A DNA stretch of 64,000 bases from an uncultured virus (IMG/VR IMGVR_UViG_3300008113_010842) (lineage: Duplodnaviria > Heunggongvirae > Uroviricota > Caudoviricetes), in the IMG/VR virus record IMGVR_UViG_3300008113_010842; one strand, written 5' to 3'. How positions within the stretch are numbered: position 1 is the first letter of the stretch; each line of letters opens with the position of its first letter. Under the pieces are notes generated by a model, which had not been told where the DNA came from, made no database searches, and saw only the letters and a list, made by a program, of their open reading frames with translations. Shown one piece after another: positions 35,911 to 54,603 of this stretch. A program made the translations under genes and the position numbers.

Positions 35911-36871
35911 ATTTAATAATTTCTAAATATTGATTCATTATCTTTTCTTTACGAAAATCATCAAAATCAAATTTTTTAACAAAATTATATTTATTTTCAA
36001 AAGAATTTCTTAATGCGGTTTTATACTCATTGTAATCAGGTTCTTCCCAGATTGAGTTAGTTTCATAAATAGAAATACTTTCTTTTGTGTTAAAGATAGG
36101 AATCTCTTTACATGATATCATTATAGAGTTTTCTCTATTTAAAAAATCTTTGTAACCGCTTATTTTTGTATCTAAACAAATTATGTCTTTTTTTAACACA
36201 GCTGCATTCAGTAAAGGAATACAAAAACCTTCCATAAAGGAGAGACAAATGTAACAATCACAATTTATCATTAGTGAAAATATATTATTTTTCGAAATGT
36301 GTTCATCAATAATAACTATTTCACATTTGATATCTTTAGGTATAATAATATCAGTTCTTCTTTTTTCAGAAAGTTTAATTATTAATCTGACATCTTTATC
36401 GTTTCTAAATTCATCGATAAAGTGATTAAGTAAATTTTTTATATTTTTTCTTTCCCAACCTGATGATTCAGTATAGAACGTCCATTTTTTATCAACAAAC
36501 TTTTTCGAAAAAAAACCATTATCAATTAAAATTTCATCTTCCCAATAATTTGGAATTACTTCAATTTTTGTCGTGATTCCATTATCTATCAGAATTTTTT
36601 TACCTACAAAAGAAGGTGTTATTATAACATCCCACTCATTTAACATTCTGATATATCTTTCTTTGATGATAGTGCCATCAATTGGTTGAATAAGTATGTT
36701 TTTATCAAATTTTTTCCAGATATTTCTTTTTTTAAAAAAGTGTTGAATTATTACATCACCGCTAATTTGGTCTTTACTAATAGTATGACCTTGATTTTCT
36801 AAAAAGGACTTTAAATCTGAGTTTATTTTATTTAAACTTACTATTCTACTATCTGGTATATGTATTTTCAT
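35909..36871 (-). CDS. Glycosyltransferase, GT-B/GT4-like
   Basis: IITPS, VIPN, RKNI, DCYICLSFMEGFCIPLL. Confidence 0.85.
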   Translation of the reverse strand: MKIHIPDSRIVSLNKINSDLKSFLENQGHTISKDQISGDVIIQHFFKKRNIWKKFDKNILIQPIDGTIIKERYIRMLNEWDVIITPSFVGKKILIDNGITTKIEVIPNYWEDEILIDNGFFSKKFVDKKWTFYTESSGWERKNIKNLLNHFIDEFRNDKDVRLIIKLSEKRRTDIIIPKDIKCEIVIIDEHISKNNIFSLMINCDCYICLSFMEGFCIPLLNAAVLKKDIICLDTKISGYKDFLNRENSIMISCKEIPIFNTKESISIYETNSIWEEPDYNEYKTALRNSFENKYNFVKKFDFDDFRKEKIMNQYLEIIK

Positions 36872-38064
36872 AAATTTTTATAATTGTTTGTTGTTTCATC
36901 ATAAACAAGACTTTTGTTTTTACCAGTGAAAATACCATCAATTAGTTTATCATAAGTTTCTATTAAATTTCTATTATCAGCAAAGTATCTAAATAATGCT
37001 TTTTTATTTCTTTCTTCATATTCTTTTAAGTTGTTGTCATGATTTTCTAATATCCAATTGAGCATTTCTGCGCCTTTTTTAGTATCAGAACCTTCATAAT
37101 AATAACCAACATCTTTACACATCGGTGCGTTGTGTAAAACTGGATATCCCATAAATGCGACATCTAAATATAAATAATTTAGGGGATTAAGTAATTGATG
37201 ACATATTAGAATATCTAAATATTGTGTGATAATATAAGATGTTTGATATCTACTTTCAGCCGTGATTTTATTTTCTTTATAAAGATCAAATGTTTTAAGT
37301 ATGCTTAAAAATTCTTTATTAACTGAAACATCCTTCGAGTTAGTTATCATCAATTTTAATATTTTATTTTTACCAATATTCGTGCGATATGATTCTTCTG
37401 CTATCATTGTTGGTATCAAACAAAATTTTACAATATTTAGGTTTGGTTCCATAATACCTAAAGCTTTTTGTTTATTCTCTGGATTATATGCAAAACCTTT
37501 TTTGAATTTACCAGCTTTATATCCTTTTTCAATATCTATGATTGCTTCTGTTAAAAATTTATGATGCCAGATAAAAGGTACACATACAACGTTTGTTCTA
37601 TATAAAGTTTGAAAAAAACCTACGTTTGTTTCGTGTTGTTGTGGAATATACCATACTTCATCAAAATAATCCTCAAATTGATTCCATCTATCTTCTTTCC
37701 CAAAAAGAACATTTTCTGTAGTTAAGATGTAGTTACTTCCGCATTTATAACTGATTACTTTATTTGTATCTTTTAAAGATTTAAATTTCTTTATTTTAGT
37801 ATCTTCTACTTGAGCACCCATTACTATTATCAAGTCCATATCTAGATAATGGTCATCAAAATAAACAATATCAATATCCTTTAAGTAAGATGGTTTTTTA
37901 GACCAATCTACCTTAATTGTGTTTAAAATTTTGACTTGATAGTTATTGTTAGATTTTTTTAAAAGATGTTCTAACATTAAAACATTTTGTTTTATACCAT
38001 TTGTCCAAATTGACTCTGTATTTGACTTTAAGCCTAACGTAATACCTATTTTTAAATTATTCAT
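36868..38064 (-). CDS. DUF2827-like putative glycosyltransferase
   Basis: SIWTNGIKQN, IMEPNLNIVK, HQLLNPLNYLYLD...GYPVLHN; start moved to ATG at 38064 behind TTATATATA. Confidence 0.7.
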   Translation of the reverse strand: MNNLKIGITLGLKSNTESIWTNGIKQNVLMLEHLLKKSNNNYQVKILNTIKVDWSKKPSYLKDIDIVYFDDHYLDMDLIIVMGAQVEDTKIKKFKSLKDTNKVISYKCGSNYILTTENVLFGKEDRWNQFEDYFDEVWYIPQQHETNVGFFQTLYRTNVVCVPFIWHHKFLTEAIIDIEKGYKAGKFKKGFAYNPENKQKALGIMEPNLNIVKFCLIPTMIAEESYRTNIGKNKILKLMITNSKDVSVNKEFLSILKTFDLYKENKITAESRYQTSYIITQYLDILICHQLLNPLNYLYLDVAFMGYPVLHNAPMCKDVGYYYEGSDTKKGAEMLNWILENHDNNLKEYEERNKKALFRYFADNRNLIETYDKLIDGIFTGKNKSLVYDETTNNYKNL

Positions 38065-38112
38065 ATAACTATATATAATCAAAATAGGTATCCAATTTTA
38101 ATATATAGTAAT

Positions 38113-39120: not shown

Positions 39121-39456
39121 ATGAAAATAGTTAAAACATATGAGAATTTTATGGACTTTGATCCGGATTTTGCTATGGCAAAAATTAAACATTTCTATAC
39201 AGAATATGATGTTAAAAACATGGTTGATGATGAAATTGAAAACTGGGTCGAAGAAGAACAAATTGTAGATAATTACGAAGGTAAAGTAGATTGGTATTAT
39301 GATAACGCTTCTGGTGAAGCTGAAGAGGTTGTGATTGACCAGATAATAGACTGGTATGAGAAAGAGTTTAAAAAAGAACTAAGTGAGGAACAAAGAGACC
39401 AATTAACACAAAGAATTGTAAAAGAATATCCTGGAATAGATCCAAACAACTATTAA
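39121..39456 (+). CDS. Acidic hypothetical protein with MKIVKTYENF leader
   Basis: 111 aa, 3 nt after the previous gene. Confidence 0.7.
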   Translation: MKIVKTYENFMDFDPDFAMAKIKHFYTEYDVKNMVDDEIENWVEEEQIVDNYEGKVDWYYDNASGEAEEVVIDQIIDWYEKEFKKELSEEQRDQLTQRIVKEYPGIDPNNY

Positions 39457-39471
39457 TTTTTCTTATATAAT
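39444..39471 (+). promoter_or_regulatory. AAAC-N18-TATAAT promoter-like motif
   Basis: Same spacing recurs upstream of several non-structural genes. Confidence 0.55.
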
Positions 39472-39489
39472 AAAGAAAAATTAAATTCT

Positions 39490-39957
39490 ATGAAACAACC
39501 TTCAAAAGAGGATTTATTGAAAAAATGGTCGTCTATTTTAGGACCAATGGGTATAACAAGTTCTCAATTAGATAATCTATTACAATTAGCTGAAAATCAA
39601 TCTAATCATATATTAGAAGAAAATACTAAAGCATCTGAATTTCCAACTTTATTACCAATGGCTATGAAAGTGGCGGCTCAAACAATTGGTCAAAATTTAG
39701 TTAGTGTTCAACCAATGTCTCATTCCGGAATGTCTCAAGAAGAAATTGATAGAATTAATGCTGAGATTAAGAAAGAAAACCGTGATAGTAAAATTGACGC
39801 CATAGTTGAAGGTAAAGATTATAAAGAATTAAAACCAGAACAACACCCTGATTGGAAATCAGGTCCAGTTGGTAATCTATTTTATTTAGACTACAAATAT
39901 GGTCATAAAAAGACAAGAAGAGCTGGTAAAAAACATAAAAAGAAATCAAATGACTAA
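39490..39957 (+). CDS. Truncated major-capsid-protein (gp23-like) N-terminal fragment with an inserted RDSKIDAI segment
   Basis: KEDLLKKWSSIL, LAENQ, VAAQTIGQNLVSVQPMS...GPVGNLFYLDYKYG parallel T4 gp23 N-terminal motifs; only 155 aa. Confidence 0.65.
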   Translation: MKQPSKEDLLKKWSSILGPMGITSSQLDNLLQLAENQSNHILEENTKASEFPTLLPMAMKVAAQTIGQNLVSVQPMSHSGMSQEEIDRINAEIKKENRDSKIDAIVEGKDYKELKPEQHPDWKSGPVGNLFYLDYKYGHKKTRRAGKKHKKKSND

Positions 39958-40063
39958 ATATGTATCACCTGGTGTTTATGTTAAAGAGGTAGATATTTCT
40001 ACATATTATCCACCTAAGAAATGGGGAAGAATGAAGAAAATTTCTAAAATTTTTACTAAGTAA
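39950..40063 (+). CDS. 37-aa mini-protein: tail-sheath-like N-terminal arm plus RMKKISKIF tail (absent from ORF track)
   Basis: MTKYVSPGVYVKEVDISTYYPPKKWGRMKKISKIFTK*; overlaps the stop of the previous gene. Confidence 0.65.
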   Translation: MTKYVSPGVYVKEVDISTYYPPKKWGRMKKISKIFTK

Positions 40064-40087
40064 ATCTATTAGGGTTATATATACCCT

Positions 40088-40423
40088 ATGTTGTTCAATA
40101 TTTATTTAGTATGTTCTGAAATAAACGGTCAAAAATTACATAAAATAGGATACACAAGAAGACCTATTGAAAAACGAATAAAAGAGTTTAAGACTGGAAA
40201 TGCTTCTGATATCTATTTAGTAGATTCTTTTCAATCAGAGTGGGGAACTAAAATTGAATCTCAACTACATAGAATTTATAAATCAAAAAAAATTGGTGGT
40301 GAATGGTTTGATTTATCACAAGAAGAAATAGATAAGTTTAAAGGTAATTGTGAAAGAATACATAATAATTTAGAATTAATATCTAAACATAATAGTTATT
40401 ATCAAGAAAGAGGTGATTTCTAA
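40088..40423 (+). CDS. GIY-YIG / T5orf172-like nuclease domain protein
   Basis: IYLV...HKIGYT...RIKEFKTGN...IESQLH...GEWF. Confidence 0.85.
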   Translation: MLFNIYLVCSEINGQKLHKIGYTRRPIEKRIKEFKTGNASDIYLVDSFQSEWGTKIESQLHRIYKSKKIGGEWFDLSQEEIDKFKGNCERIHNNLELISKHNSYYQERGDF

Positions 40424-40467: not shown

Positions 40468-40740
40468 ATGGCTTCACTTAAAGAAATGTCAATAAAAGAG
40501 TATATTTCAAAAATTGACTTCAAAAATGATGATTGGAAATTATCTAAAATCAAAGAAGATATGCGTAGATTCTTAGGAGAAGAGCCTGGAATTGATGTGA
40601 TTTATAAAAAAGATGTATTAATAAATGAAGCCACGATGAAGGCTGAGGAATTTGTTGATGTTGATAGAATACAAATTGTATTTTTTGATACCGATGATAG
40701 GTTTAAAAAGATAGAATTTATTATTAATGATAAAATTTAA
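40468..40740 (+). CDS. Hypothetical protein
   Basis: 90-aa ORF behind TAATATATA at 40438-40446. Confidence 0.65.
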   Translation: MASLKEMSIKEYISKIDFKNDDWKLSKIKEDMRRFLGEEPGIDVIYKKDVLINEATMKAEEFVDVDRIQIVFFDTDDRFKKIEFIINDKI

Positions 40741-40746
40741 AAATTT

Positions 40747-40965
40747 ATGAAGTTTGATAATTACTATTTAGATTTAGAAAAAGTAAATTCCATTCAAGAT
40801 AAAGAAGAAAAAGAACAAATTCATCGTTATTATATGGAAATGATGCATTCTTTTTGTGATGGATCTAGTAGAACCTCAATTGGAATGTCTCTTTTCAATA
40901 CCTTAAACCAATCAGGATACTTAAAAGAGGTAAGGTCAGAAAAAATTGATAAGTTACTATCATGA
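40747..40965 (+). CDS. Small hypothetical protein ending in RSEKIDKLLS
   Basis: 72 aa; ATGA overlap with the next gene. Confidence 0.65.
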   Translation: MKFDNYYLDLEKVNSIQDKEEKEQIHRYYMEMMHSFCDGSSRTSIGMSLFNTLNQSGYLKEVRSEKIDKLLS

Positions 40966-43630: not shown

Positions 43631-43825
43631 ATGTTAATTGTAAAAATCGAAGGTAAAGAAACTATCGAAAGAGCTGTAAAAAAACTCAAAAGAAAATATG
43701 ATAATGCTAAAATTGGTAAAACTCTTAGAGATAGAAAAGAATTTACAAAAAAATCTGTCAAAAGAAGAGACGAACTAAAAAAGGCAATTTATAAGCAAAA
43801 ATTAAGAGACGGTGAAAGAGACTAA
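43631..43825 (+). CDS. rpsU: Ribosomal protein bS21 (phage-encoded, Bacteroidota-like)
   Basis: MLIVKIEGKETIERAVKKLKRK...LRDRKEFTKKSVKRR. Confidence 0.9.
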   Translation: MLIVKIEGKETIERAVKKLKRKYDNAKIGKTLRDRKEFTKKSVKRRDELKKAIYKQKLRDGERD

Positions 43826-44532
43826 TGAATAAAGATAAAAATTATTATAAAATTTTAGGAGTTTCTCACGATGATGATGAAAAAACTATAAAAAAAGCTT
43901 ATTATAAGTTGTCTTATACATTTCACCCTGATAAAGGAGGTGATCCTAACGTATTTTCGGAAATCACTGAGGCATATGATATACTATATAATATAGAAAG
44001 TAGAAAAGAATATGACCTTAAAAGTAAATTCGGAAGTAATTACAACGAATATTTTGAACTATTTGATATAAATGTTGATTTTTCTTATGATGAAGGTAAA
44101 GAAAAACTAGAAAAATTCAAAAAGTATGAAGTCTATAATATACAAATTAATATAGATGATAGTTTTGATGGTTCTTTAGAATATGAAAGATGGGTCAAAT
44201 GTAAATCTTGTGATGGTACTGGTAAAGATTTTTCATCAAAAATTATAATAAGAGATACCGAAGGTAATATAGTAAAGACATTTGATGCGGATGATGGTTG
44301 TGATTTTTGTGAAGGAAGTGGAAAAGATTATATAGGTAATTCTTGCTCTTTTTGCCAAGGTGCTGGTAAAGTAGGAATAAATCCTTGTAAAAAATGCAAT
44401 GGTGAAAAAAGAATTTTAGGTAAGCAAAAATTATCTAAAATAAAACTTACTGGTGACGAAACTAAAATAGATTCAATGGGTCATTTTTCAAAAGATGGTG
44501 TAGTTGGTTATTTACTAATTGTGAAAAAATAA
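43825..44532 (+). CDS. dnaJ: DnaJ-like co-chaperone (J domain plus four CxxCxGxG-type repeats, shortened C-terminus)
   Basis: NYYKILGV, HPDKGG, CKSCDGTG, CDFCEGSG, CSFCQGAG, CKKCNGEK. Confidence 0.85.
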   Translation: MNKDKNYYKILGVSHDDDEKTIKKAYYKLSYTFHPDKGGDPNVFSEITEAYDILYNIESRKEYDLKSKFGSNYNEYFELFDINVDFSYDEGKEKLEKFKKYEVYNIQINIDDSFDGSLEYERWVKCKSCDGTGKDFSSKIIIRDTEGNIVKTFDADDGCDFCEGSGKDYIGNSCSFCQGAGKVGINPCKKCNGEKRILGKQKLSKIKLTGDETKIDSMGHFSKDGVVGYLLIVKK

Positions 44533-52278: not shown

Positions 52279-53001
52279 ATGGAAAAAATGAAAATTTTAA
52301 TTTTTACTGGTGCTGGAGTTTCAGCGGAAAGTGGAGTTGCGACTTTTAGAACTGGTGATGATGGATTATGGTATAATCACAGAGTAGAGGATGTTGCTAC
52401 ATTTGATGGTTGGCGTAGAGATAAAGAAAAGGTCTTAAATTTCTACAATTTGCGTCGTGCTCAATTAAAAGAAGTAGAACCTAATTTAGCACACCAAATA
52501 ATTGCTGATTTAGAAAAAGACTTTGATGTTACAGTTGTGACACAAAATGTTGATAATCTTCACGAAAGAGCTGGTTCAACTAAAGTAGTTCACTTACACG
52601 GTGAATTAACAAAAGTCAGATCTACTTTAGATCCTACTTTAATTTACGATTGGGTAGAAGATTGTAATGTTGGTGATAAATGTGAGAAAGGTTCACAATT
52701 GAGACCTCATATTGTTTGGTTTGGTGAAAACTTAAATCCTAAAATGATTGAAAGAGCTGAAGAAGCCGCTTATGAATGTGATGTTTGTGTTATTGTAGGA
52801 ACTTCGATGCAAGTTGCACCGGCTAATCAAATTCCATTTTTAACAAAACCAAATACACTTATCTATGTAGTTGATCCATCTGATATGGATTTTCATATAG
52901 ATAAACAAAGAAGACCGTTTTTGACACACATTCAAGAAGTTGCATCTACCGGTATGGAAAAGATTATGAGTGATTTAAAAAGTATTAACAATCAAAATTA
53001 A
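52279..53001 (+). CDS. cobB: Sir2/CobB NAD-dependent deacylase
   Basis: TGAGVSAESGVATFR, TQNVDNLHERAG, HLHGEL, LRPHIVWFGE, VGTSMQVAPA. Confidence 0.95.
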   Translation: MEKMKILIFTGAGVSAESGVATFRTGDDGLWYNHRVEDVATFDGWRRDKEKVLNFYNLRRAQLKEVEPNLAHQIIADLEKDFDVTVVTQNVDNLHERAGSTKVVHLHGELTKVRSTLDPTLIYDWVEDCNVGDKCEKGSQLRPHIVWFGENLNPKMIERAEEAAYECDVCVIVGTSMQVAPANQIPFLTKPNTLIYVVDPSDMDFHIDKQRRPFLTHIQEVASTGMEKIMSDLKSINNQN

Positions 53002-53267
53002 ATAACACAGAAACAAACATTTTTGACAGTGAATACTGGAAACTTTTAGAAAGACAAGGTATTAATAGATATCTTAAATTAGATAATAACTTAGTTATTA
53101 TTACTGATATCTTAAAAAAGAAAAGAAAAAAAGGTGGTAAAGTAAACCAAGTTTATTATGTCACTGAGTGTGGAATAACAAAACATGCATCATTCTTTTC
53201 TAAAATAGACAAAAGAGATATTTTACAAATTAAAAGGGATTTAAAATTACAAAAACTAGGACTATGA
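52989..53267 (+). CDS. Open frame of about 92 codons with no ATG/GTG/TTG start, ending KRDLKLQKLGL (absent from ORF track)
   Basis: Stop-free from 52989 to TGA 53265-53267, fills the gap, ATGA overlap with the next gene, carries the shared C-terminal motif. Confidence 0.55.
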   Translation, partial: QSKLNNTETNIFDSEYWKLLERQGINRYLKLDNNLVIITDILKKKRKKGGKVNQVYYVTECGITKHASFFSKIDKRDILQIKRDLKLQKLGL

Positions 53268-53470
53268 AAAATAAATACAAAAGTATCTACAGCACATATA
53301 ATGACTATAATATTGATTATAAAGACTATGGTAAATATGTTAATATAACAGACTATATCAATGAGTATAATGTTGATTGGGTAGAATATAAACCCGAAAC
53401 AAAAGAAGAAAAACTAGCTCGTGAAAAGGCGGAAAAAAGAAATTCTAAAATCGACCAAATCTTAGGATAA
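53264..53470 (+). CDS. Small hypothetical protein ending KRNSKIDQILG
   Basis: 68 aa; coupled overlaps on both sides. Confidence 0.65.
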   Translation: MKNKYKSIYSTYNDYNIDYKDYGKYVNITDYINEYNVDWVEYKPETKEEKLAREKAEKRNSKIDQILG

Positions 53471-54006
53471 TGGAATGGATAATCGCCTTTAGTATAGTGA
53501 TTACAATTTTTTTGACTATATTATCAATACCTTCTTGGGTTGAAGTTTATAAATTAGGTTGGAAAGAATATATTGAAAGTTGGAAGTCTATTTCTTTACT
53601 TAAAAAAGGTCTAAATTTGTCTTATAAAATAGAAAAAACACAAACTTTAAATTATAATTATTATAATGGTAAAACTAAATCAGTTACCTCCAAAGTTACA
53701 GATTATTATTACCCAATATTTAAAAATGGTGATGTTATAATAATTAAAAGTTCCGAGAGTCCTTTTTCAACGATATATGTCATTTTTAACCGTAAAATGA
53801 ATGGTAAATGGGTTGAAAATACAACTGAACTTAAGACGAGTCAGTGTCCCTGGCAACAATTATTTATTGATATCGTTAAAAATAAATTGATTAAGTTAAG
53901 AGAATCTTCTCTTAAATTAGAAAATGTGAATAAACTAGAAGAAGTTATTTATTCTGATTTATTGGAAAGAGATAGAGATAATAAGATTAATTTATTATTA
54001 AATTAG
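53470..54006 (+). CDS. Membrane-anchored hypothetical protein ending RDNKINLLLN
   Basis: N-terminal hydrophobic helix; 178 aa. Confidence 0.65.
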   Translation: MEWIIAFSIVITIFLTILSIPSWVEVYKLGWKEYIESWKSISLLKKGLNLSYKIEKTQTLNYNYYNGKTKSVTSKVTDYYYPIFKNGDVIIIKSSESPFSTIYVIFNRKMNGKWVENTTELKTSQCPWQQLFIDIVKNKLIKLRESSLKLENVNKLEEVIYSDLLERDRDNKINLLLN

Positions 54007-54362
54007 TCTTCTTTCTTAAAAGAAGATGGTGTTATTAAATTTTGTTGTTTAAAAACCTTTAATAAAATGAAAACTAATGTACCTCCTGGTAAGATAGATA
54101 ATGATGTTAAACCAAGCATTTTTAAAATATCAACTGATTGTTGTTTTATAAATCTTATTTCTTCTTCTGATAAATCCCTTTTTTTACCTTCAACATCTAA
54201 TAACTCACCTTTTGATGCTTTACTTAATAAGTCGTAAGCCTGTCTCGTTTCATCACCTTCATTTTTTAGTTTTCTTTTGAATTCTTGGAAATTGTTTTTC
54301 AAATCCTCTATAAGTTGAGATGGATCAATCAGGTAATCTTTTATAGATTTTATGTATTTCAT
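54003..54362 (-). CDS. Hypothetical protein with hydrophobic LPGG hairpin (possibly LETM1-like) and MKYIKS leader
   Basis: ILKMLGLTSLSILPGGTLVFILLKVF..ITPSSF; TAATATATA 6 nt upstream. Confidence 0.55.
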   Translation of the reverse strand: MKYIKSIKDYLIDPSQLIEDLKNNFQEFKRKLKNEGDETRQAYDLLSKASKGELLDVEGKKRDLSEEEIRFIKQQSVDILKMLGLTSLSILPGGTLVFILLKVFKQQNLITPSSFKKED

Positions 54363-54414
54363 TATAATTATATATTATTTTACAAACAATCAAAAGTTTA
54401 TTTTTTATAATTAT

Positions 54415-54603
54415 ATGAATAATAAAGAAAATTTAGATATTTTTGGACAATTACTTAACGGAAAACAAGTTATAATTGGAAAACCGCGACAGGTAGGAAA
54501 AACCTATGCTACACAATTATTTAGAGATTGGAAAGTCACTTTTAATAAACACTCTCGTGCTCAGGATAGAAAAGAAAGTATAAAAAAACTTTTTAATATA
54601 TAA
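54415..54603 (+). CDS. 62-aa mini-protein with a terminase-type Walker A (KPRQVGKT) plus RKESIKKLF tail
   Basis: ATG at 54415 directly behind AAAC-N18-TATAAT (54384-54411); VIIGKPRQVGKTY. Confidence 0.6.
   Translation: MNNKENLDIFGQLLNGKQVIIGKPRQVGKTYATQLFRDWKVTFNKHSRAQDRKESIKKLFNI

Follow-up and report, generated by a model that had tools for sequence, protein, structure and literature searches.

We identified a 37-aa mini-gene, the short form of its family, at positions 39950..40063 (+) of the window, that is, the 64,000-nucleotide stretch analysed here, which forms the first half of a 122,918-bp virus record (29% GC). Codon-level constraint and comparison with relatives show it to be real and under selection. 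The encoded protein joins a segment resembling the N-terminal arm of contractile tail sheaths (residues 3-17; 39956..40000 (+)) to a basic tag, R-x-x-K-I-x-x-I-F (residues 27-35; 40028..40054 (+)), and, judged by sequence, it belongs to a set of tagged virion-protein fragments.

The translation and position of this ORF given in a preliminary description were reproduced exactly: it reads as 37 aa plus a stop, and the last 8 nt of a 155-aa ORF (39490..39957 (+)) overlap its start. Sequence matches identify this upstream ORF, the first of the pair, as a tagged copy of the N-terminal region of the major capsid protein (tag pattern at about 39781-39807 (+)), here called the capsid mimic. A mechanical ORF list contains a same-frame reading of 54 aa from an upstream ATG (39899..39901 (+)), which is probably not the start. 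We prefer 39950 because relatives, for which public gene calls are available, keep a methionine 3-9 residues ahead of the arm motif and only 17/45 loci have a further upstream ATG; the equivalent of ATG 39899 is absent from L001 and L037. A programmed frameshift joining the two genes was considered and rejected, because relative to the upstream gene the mini-gene starts in two different frames (31 and 14 of 45 loci), the pattern expected of translational coupling. Three records carry the two genes fused in frame (L039:132-902, P0242 and P0244; 216-241 aa), and for L039 and P0244 an error of sequencing or assembly at a run of A residues may explain the fusion.

The mini-gene lies outside a tail module, between the capsid mimic and a 111-aa MUG113/T5orf172 (GIY-YIG-like) gene recognized by library match (40088..40423 (+)); the latter follows it in 35/45 loci, and an SbcC-like gene is also nearby. 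Other phage-encoded genes in the window include bS21 (43631-43825), DnaJ (43825-44532), Sir2 (52279-53001) and DUF2827 (36868-38082). No full sheath or capsid gene is present on the 122,918-bp contig, and in relatives the full sheath and structural module are far from the mini-gene. Since the window's sheath gene is off the contig, the phage's 'own' sheath was taken from five relatives (176-476 kb), in each of which a single complete sheath gene (encoding 1,283-1,332 aa) and a single complete capsid gene (560-592 aa) are present; four of the five have one sheath mini, and the fifth is 47% complete. Separately, L162 and L163 mark a viral contig with a tandem pair of sheath genes. The window stretch is present in lake and freshwater metagenome runs, and the host is likely a member of the Bacteroidetes, judging from what two papers say of bS21-carrying phages (PMC9723584) and genomes over 634 kb (PMC7162821).

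The short ORF is conserved. An alignment of the neighbouring capsid mimic was used to fetch 92 loci, from which we dropped 4 running off the contig and 10 containing other proteins or full capsid genes; among the remaining 78, which are partly redundant, 55 have a relative behind the capsid mimic (one of these is a fusion and one a cut copy), with the mini-gene missing or an armless tagged ORF in its place in the other 23. Based on 16 disjoint pairs from 40 distinct sequences, dN/dS was 0.37 (pN 0.073, pS 0.179; p 1.3e-8), and purifying selection on the arm (pN 0.073 versus pS 0.20) was as strong as on the tag (pN 0.059 versus pS 0.14). The two other forward frames contain stops in 40 and 39 of the 40 sequences, and an indel relative to L001 keeps the frame. 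Profile searches yielded 407 proteins among 884 candidates, and the relatives fall into 81 clusters when grouped at 50% identity, although two or three clusters are spurious long repeats; 58/81 representatives have both arm and tag, 12 of them ending no more than 6 residues past the tag. Carriers are large phage records (176-642 kb; three classed as 'provirus' by IMG/VR), including a 642-kb public record with the mini-gene, while a 635-kb one has an armless tagged ORF at that place. It is extremely improbable that the ORF is a non-functional remnant or a chance reading: selection, stops in the alternative frames, the in-frame indel and the 81 clusters all argue against it, although one copy appears decayed (L007), libraries give no match to the ORF, and the single RNA run (share 0.11), which says nothing on expression, has no contig spanning it.

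The likeness to sheaths lies at their extreme N terminus, where contractile sheath proteins (PF04984/PF17482; phrog_23, phrog_34521; phage XM1 gp6, phi92 gp130) carry the same motif and where two reports (PMC10457771, PMC13450770) have the N-arm building the four-stranded handshake sheet between subunits. Unlike sheath proteins, the mini-protein stands alone (37-104 aa in the family), has no C-terminal handshake domain and cannot polymerise, carries an inserted tag and coexists with a full 1,283-1,332-aa sheath; the PF04984 and PF17482 domains carried by full sheaths are absent from the 37-aa ORF. Against an HMM of 14 real sheath N-termini, the mini-gene frame ranked first of 1,948 stop-to-stop frames (E 4.2e-8; next 1.4), a value flattered because 9/14 of these N-termini had been picked by the same motif. 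HHalign gave 97.5% for the ORF versus sheath N-termini over residues 3-22 and 97.7% for the minis versus real sheath N-termini. A family profile searched against PDB had sheath residues 1-15 in four of its top five matches, at only E 0.12-1.2, with T4 gp18 absent at E<=10. Neither Pfam nor PHROGs matched the 37-aa ORF and ESM Atlas gave no usable match for it; searching 33 members against both libraries returned phrog_35633 (function not assigned; E 8e-4) and otherwise nothing significant, the tail sheath family phrog_3242 appearing at E 0.039 in one of the 33. In a search with longer proteins, a full sheath came up no better than E 3.8.

The arm motif exceeds chance expectation, with one occurrence in six frames of the 122,918-bp contig versus 0.007 expected, for a pattern picked after the ORF had been seen. 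Its proposed match to sheath N-termini stood for residues 3-17 in the HMM and HHalign comparisons and was weak once motif selection was removed (an HMM built from five lineage sheaths gave E 0.069). The description of the whole ORF as equal to the isolated arm did not survive: arm sequence is confined to residues 3-17, and residues 27-35 hold a distinct tag motif with no counterpart there in real sheaths. Across 121 viral loci sampled from about 4,600 stretches, the form SPGVY-x-x-E-x-D opens long sheath-type ORFs at 111/112 distinct sites (82 confirmed by phmmer, 29 by eye); the remaining site is random and none stands alone. The motif is thus diagnostic of sheaths, free arms are rare and canonical sheath targets are abundant. 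When the ORF (33-row alignment) was modelled together with the C-terminal domain of a foreign sheath (9-row alignment), the predicted complex scored 0.07 (mark 0.32), which weighs neither way. The sheaths matched in PDB were deposited as tail sheath proteins and share the arm at residues 1-15, and some of them presumably come from bacterial injection systems. The target might be a contractile injection system of the host whose sheath uses the same arm, which we consider very improbable, as it leaves the partner capsid mimic and the other capsid fragments unexplained.

The tag recurs well beyond this gene. Its strict pattern was found seven times in 330 ORFs of the contig versus 0.67 expected, often at C-termini; a looser pattern gave 10 matches in 146 ORFs versus 3.3 expected, a weak signal because the maximum in 100 shuffles was also 10. 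The tag likely forms an amphipathic helix, with a hydrophobic moment of 0.45 at 100 degrees, and a low-confidence model made for a longer relative shows it as a helix. The AlphaFold2 prediction for a 71-aa family member had a mean pLDDT of 50.9, too low for a fold search. Further tagged small ORFs, most with the tag at the C terminus and none with library matches where scanned, lie in the window (40468-40740, 40747-40965, 53264-53470, 53470-54006 and 54352-54603) and in G000, the contig (79388-79891 and 82875-83429). By eye, the last of these and the tagged ORF L134:1498-2031 resemble degenerate P-loop helicase fragments; the L134 ORF had no significant PHROG match. In L036, L061, L062, L080 and L256, an armless tagged ORF replaces the sheath mini after the capsid mimic. 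These armless ORFs have a different conserved C-terminal motif, and P0307 has both that motif and the arm. Such replacement, together with the strict tag's excess and frequent C-terminal position, would fit the tag being the working part, docking on a phage or host partner or on a membrane, with the arm only a carrier or generic beta-strand. That seems improbable given purifying selection on the arm as strong as on the tag, an arm core invariant in 118/118 homologues and two loci (L010 and L048) with the arm motif twice.

Longer members of the family indicate where the tag sits. Four 71-73-aa relatives align to full-sheath residues 1-66 with a 12-residue insertion, match the HMM of five lineage sheaths at E 8.5e-7 to 1.3e-3 and run on into the first sheath domain, while the window form ends directly after the insertion, which is the tag. 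Beyond it, the third segment varies among relatives between sheath continuation, a strand like the lineage's terminase coupling motif, other sequence or none. The terminase-like strand is found in 109 of the 120 top homologues, marks the 58-66-aa relatives and was closer to the phage's own terminase in 7/7 such forms scored; the window ORF has no third segment and is not a sheath-terminase chimera. In a tree built from 63 neighbour proteins, nearly all terminase-like forms fall in one derived clade (L035 lies outside) and the short forms are scattered. The varying third segment and the scatter of short forms indicate that the minimal conserved unit is arm plus tag. Among the variants, L010:3459-3629 and L048 carry the arm twice, and P0308 and P0316 represent forms with two tags or a four-cysteine segment between arm and tag.

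We then compared the arm with own and other sheaths. Its core residues S0, V3 and I10 are present in 118, 118 and 114 of 118 homologues, and the five lineage sheaths have R, I and K/N at positions 0, 3 and 10, so that a canonical SPGV in the minis stands against RPGI in the lineage sheath; position 10, unfixed by the search pattern, is L in 95/110 other sheaths. Outside the core the likeness shifts towards the lineage: position -1 is K in 103/118 homologues and also in the lineage sheath, the window ORF scores 12-14 versus own sheaths and a median of 10 versus 110 others over its eight unfixed arm positions, and the third segment of the four 71-73-aa forms scores 56-62 versus own sheath and 27-50 versus the median other sheath. 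Own-type RPG arms occur in 6/68 representatives, and the mini at L004:3476-3661, nested in an SPG clade and otherwise nearly identical to an SPG-type relative, has switched to an arm of the own-sheath type. By these comparisons, the sheath mini is a mosaic of canonical core and own-like remainder, not purely foreign, and it likely descends from the lineage sheath with its core held at the pan-myophage consensus.

This descent bears on whether the mini-protein might serve its own phage, capping or chaperoning own sheath subunits, in concert with the capsid mimic, against premature polymerisation. The single mini copy beside one full sheath in 4/5 relatives, the likely lineage origin with own-type arms in a minority, the coupling to the capsid mimic (fused in three records) and the inferred late timing discussed below would all suit such a role. 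We nevertheless judge it unlikely, as in nearly every member the arm core departs from that of the own sheath, 23/78 loci have either no mini or an armless tagged ORF in its place, and in relatives the mini lies far from the structural module.

The tagged capsid fragments of relatives provide a second comparison of own and foreign sequence. The capsid mimic of the window itself scores about the same against own as against foreign proteins (94 versus 89). In 4/5 relatives, we found stand-alone, 56-99-aa tagged fragments of different capsid-protein segments, 11 in total (L103:1450-1665, L104:1501-1704, L106:1507-1707, L107:1465-1686, L108:1516-1716, L109:1146-1445, L115:543-815, L116:566-736, L117:591-818, L128:1384-1641 and L129:1459-1719), which cover four different segments. 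All 11 score higher versus five foreign capsid proteins, taken from one other lineage (L086-L091), than versus the five lineage ones, with disjoint ranges. Because nine of the fragments had been found with the canonical Pfam model, we controlled for this bias: the two found through the tag behave like the other nine, and, in the five relatives, the own capsid protein as query hit 0 frames below 110 aa (its 8 other matches being 150-261-aa frames), while the foreign one gave 10 matches in 9 such frames. Five of the six fragments tested match the canonical phrog_138 and none the lineage family phrog_28442. At the sequence level, the sister fragments are thus closer to foreign capsid proteins of the canonical T4 type than to those of the lineage. 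Distinct from these are capsid paralogues of ~250 aa (L105:1378-2154 and 251-261-aa frames in G001, G002 and G005), some of them tagged, which match the own capsid protein.

Features upstream of the pair suggest when it may be expressed. A 12-bp perfect hairpin with a TATA-containing loop (39453..39484 (+); z -4.8) ends 5 nt before the capsid-mimic start, and a second TATA-loop hairpin (40070..40088 (+)) reaches the start codon of the next gene. Relatives show compensatory changes at four stem positions of the first hairpin, and perfect stems of at least 8 bp are present in 30/61 distinct upstream regions versus before 4/104 genes of the contig. In the 41/61 regions that could be anchored by sequence, positions 5-8 pair in 35, 36, 31 and 32 versus 23, 21, 22 and 24 in shuffles, which overstate the significance because the sequences are related; the anchored stems are 86% paired versus 49-67% when slid. 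The anchor is present in 34/38 loci with the sheath mini versus 7/23 without it, again among related sequences. The closest relative, L001, has no hairpin, some copies have T tracts and may be terminators, and a genome-wide search for the hairpin pattern gave no excess above control.

TATATA occurs 30-46 nt before 10/10 sheath and capsid genes and before 40/117 genes of all kinds on the contig (G000), versus a background of 97/2,048 windows (5%), and its distribution makes it the probable main phage promoter element. A sigma-70 promoter scan was at chance, and host-type TAnnTTTG promoters in 14/117 upstream windows versus 9 antisense were not convincing. From this arrangement we infer that the first hairpin is a late-only control element or insulator and that the capsid-mimic and sheath-mini pair is expressed late. 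Late-only control of T4 genes e, soc, 49 and I-TevI, as described in PMC3014915, likewise uses a hairpin that covers the initiation region and contains a TATA-type element; unlike in T4, the loop consensus here is not TATAAATA, there is no Shine-Dalgarno sequence and the promoter is only predicted. A-rich unpaired leaders matter in Bacteroidetes (PMC6847099). Thirteen ORFs (window positions 25, 2661, 14733, 39121, 55226, 58840, 59869 and 60583, and five in G000) share an N-terminal motif. We take this motif to be like the T4 capsid-targeting sequence; TATATA lies upstream of 8/13 of them versus 32/104 others, which is not significant (p 0.058). Packaging through such a sequence was rejected for the mini-gene, whose ORF lacks the motif.

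Tentatively, we propose that the mini-protein is a late bait against co-infecting myophages that would jam their tail assembly. Made late in infection as a sheath arm plus shared tag, it would insert its arm into the handshake sheet of canonical foreign sheath subunits; as the arm lacks the rest of the subunit, the lattice would end there and the rival tail would stall, while the tag would dock on a partner and the diverged own sheath would confer self-immunity. This reading draws its likelihood from the resemblance of the arm and the tagged capsid fragments to other phages' virion proteins more than to the phage's own. In part, the preliminary idea of a free arm directed against rival phages passed the two conditions set to refute it, since the ORF is conserved under purifying selection and its motif fits sheath N-termini; the non-own, canonical arm core and sister capsid fragments lend it indirect support, although it overlooked the tag, the longer family members and the wider set of tagged fragments. 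Blocking assembly is a form of inter-phage defence in PMC11364771 and PMC10884400. Against a bait speak the mosaic make-up of the sheath mini, the own-type arms of a minority, the near-equal scores of the window's capsid mimic, the 23/78 loci lacking the gene and the missing hairpin in L001; moreover, the canonical likeness could reflect an old duplication held in place by any conserved partner, and a free peptide would have to compete with a tethered arm in a multivalent lattice.

The same fragments might instead shield the phage from its host as sensor decoys, the arm binding a host pattern-recognition protein for conserved virion motifs but leaving it inactive, in the way that DSAD1 acts on DSR2. 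The fragment set spans capsid, sheath and a terminase-like motif, of which capsid and terminase are known triggers, and a late timing would fit. Published work further describes Lit and CapRel as detecting capsid protein through short motifs (PMC13581612) and DSAD1 as mimicking the tail tube (PMC10973363). In PMC13581612 the tail sheath figures as a STAND trigger that is possible but not established, and at least 12 of 14 families are said to bind whole folds. A decoy should moreover track the phage's own proteins, which the fragments mostly do not, leaving this explanation possible though doubtful. A broader proposal is that the lineage has a modular arsenal of 'bait plus tag', in which copies of universal T4-type assembly interfaces (capsid segments, sheath arm and terminase motif), joined to a docking helix, would deliver captured foreign virion proteins to a common sink, for example a protease or membrane, while own virion proteins would escape as diverged; we regard this as rather unlikely.

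Known systems come close in part. As a bait, the mini-protein would be akin to Tai (PMC11364771) and Tab (PMC10884400), small element-encoded proteins that stop rival tails; these reside in prophages or satellites with counter-defence genes, and Tab targets the tape measure protein. The mini-protein is set apart as a sheath-derived fragment with a predicted role in a jumbo phage, and we identified no cognate counter-defence gene for it. As a decoy, it would parallel DSAD1, a small phage protein standing in for a tail protein; for DSAD1 the sensor is known (DSR2) and the copied protein is the tail tube (PMC10973363), while the mini-protein is homologous to the protein it copies. Within the accessible literature on phage-protein mimics and triggers, we found no sheath sensor. 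The mini-protein is also alike, as a truncated paralogue, to the microProteins of plants and animals. These are truncated paralogues keeping only an interaction segment, but they are eukaryotic, act on their own partners and share no tag. Neither the open-licence full texts, in the portions available, nor the EVADES preprint contained a description of tagged virion-protein fragments. On sequence grounds, the mini-gene is thus an undescribed member of a system of tagged virion-protein mimics, with a predicted function.

What is new here is the architecture: stand-alone, tagged virion-protein fragments, under selection, in hundreds of huge-phage sequences, with no family in Pfam or PHROGs and no counterpart in the papers searched. 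With a peptide of 37 residues, the questions of poison and decoy are cheap to test. If the fragments act as decoys, host sensors still to be discovered would be implied, among them a sensor of the tail sheath. If they poison foreign assembly, they would constitute a catalogue of natural peptides that inhibit the assembly of capsids and tails, and a new way for lytic phages to fight inside a cell.
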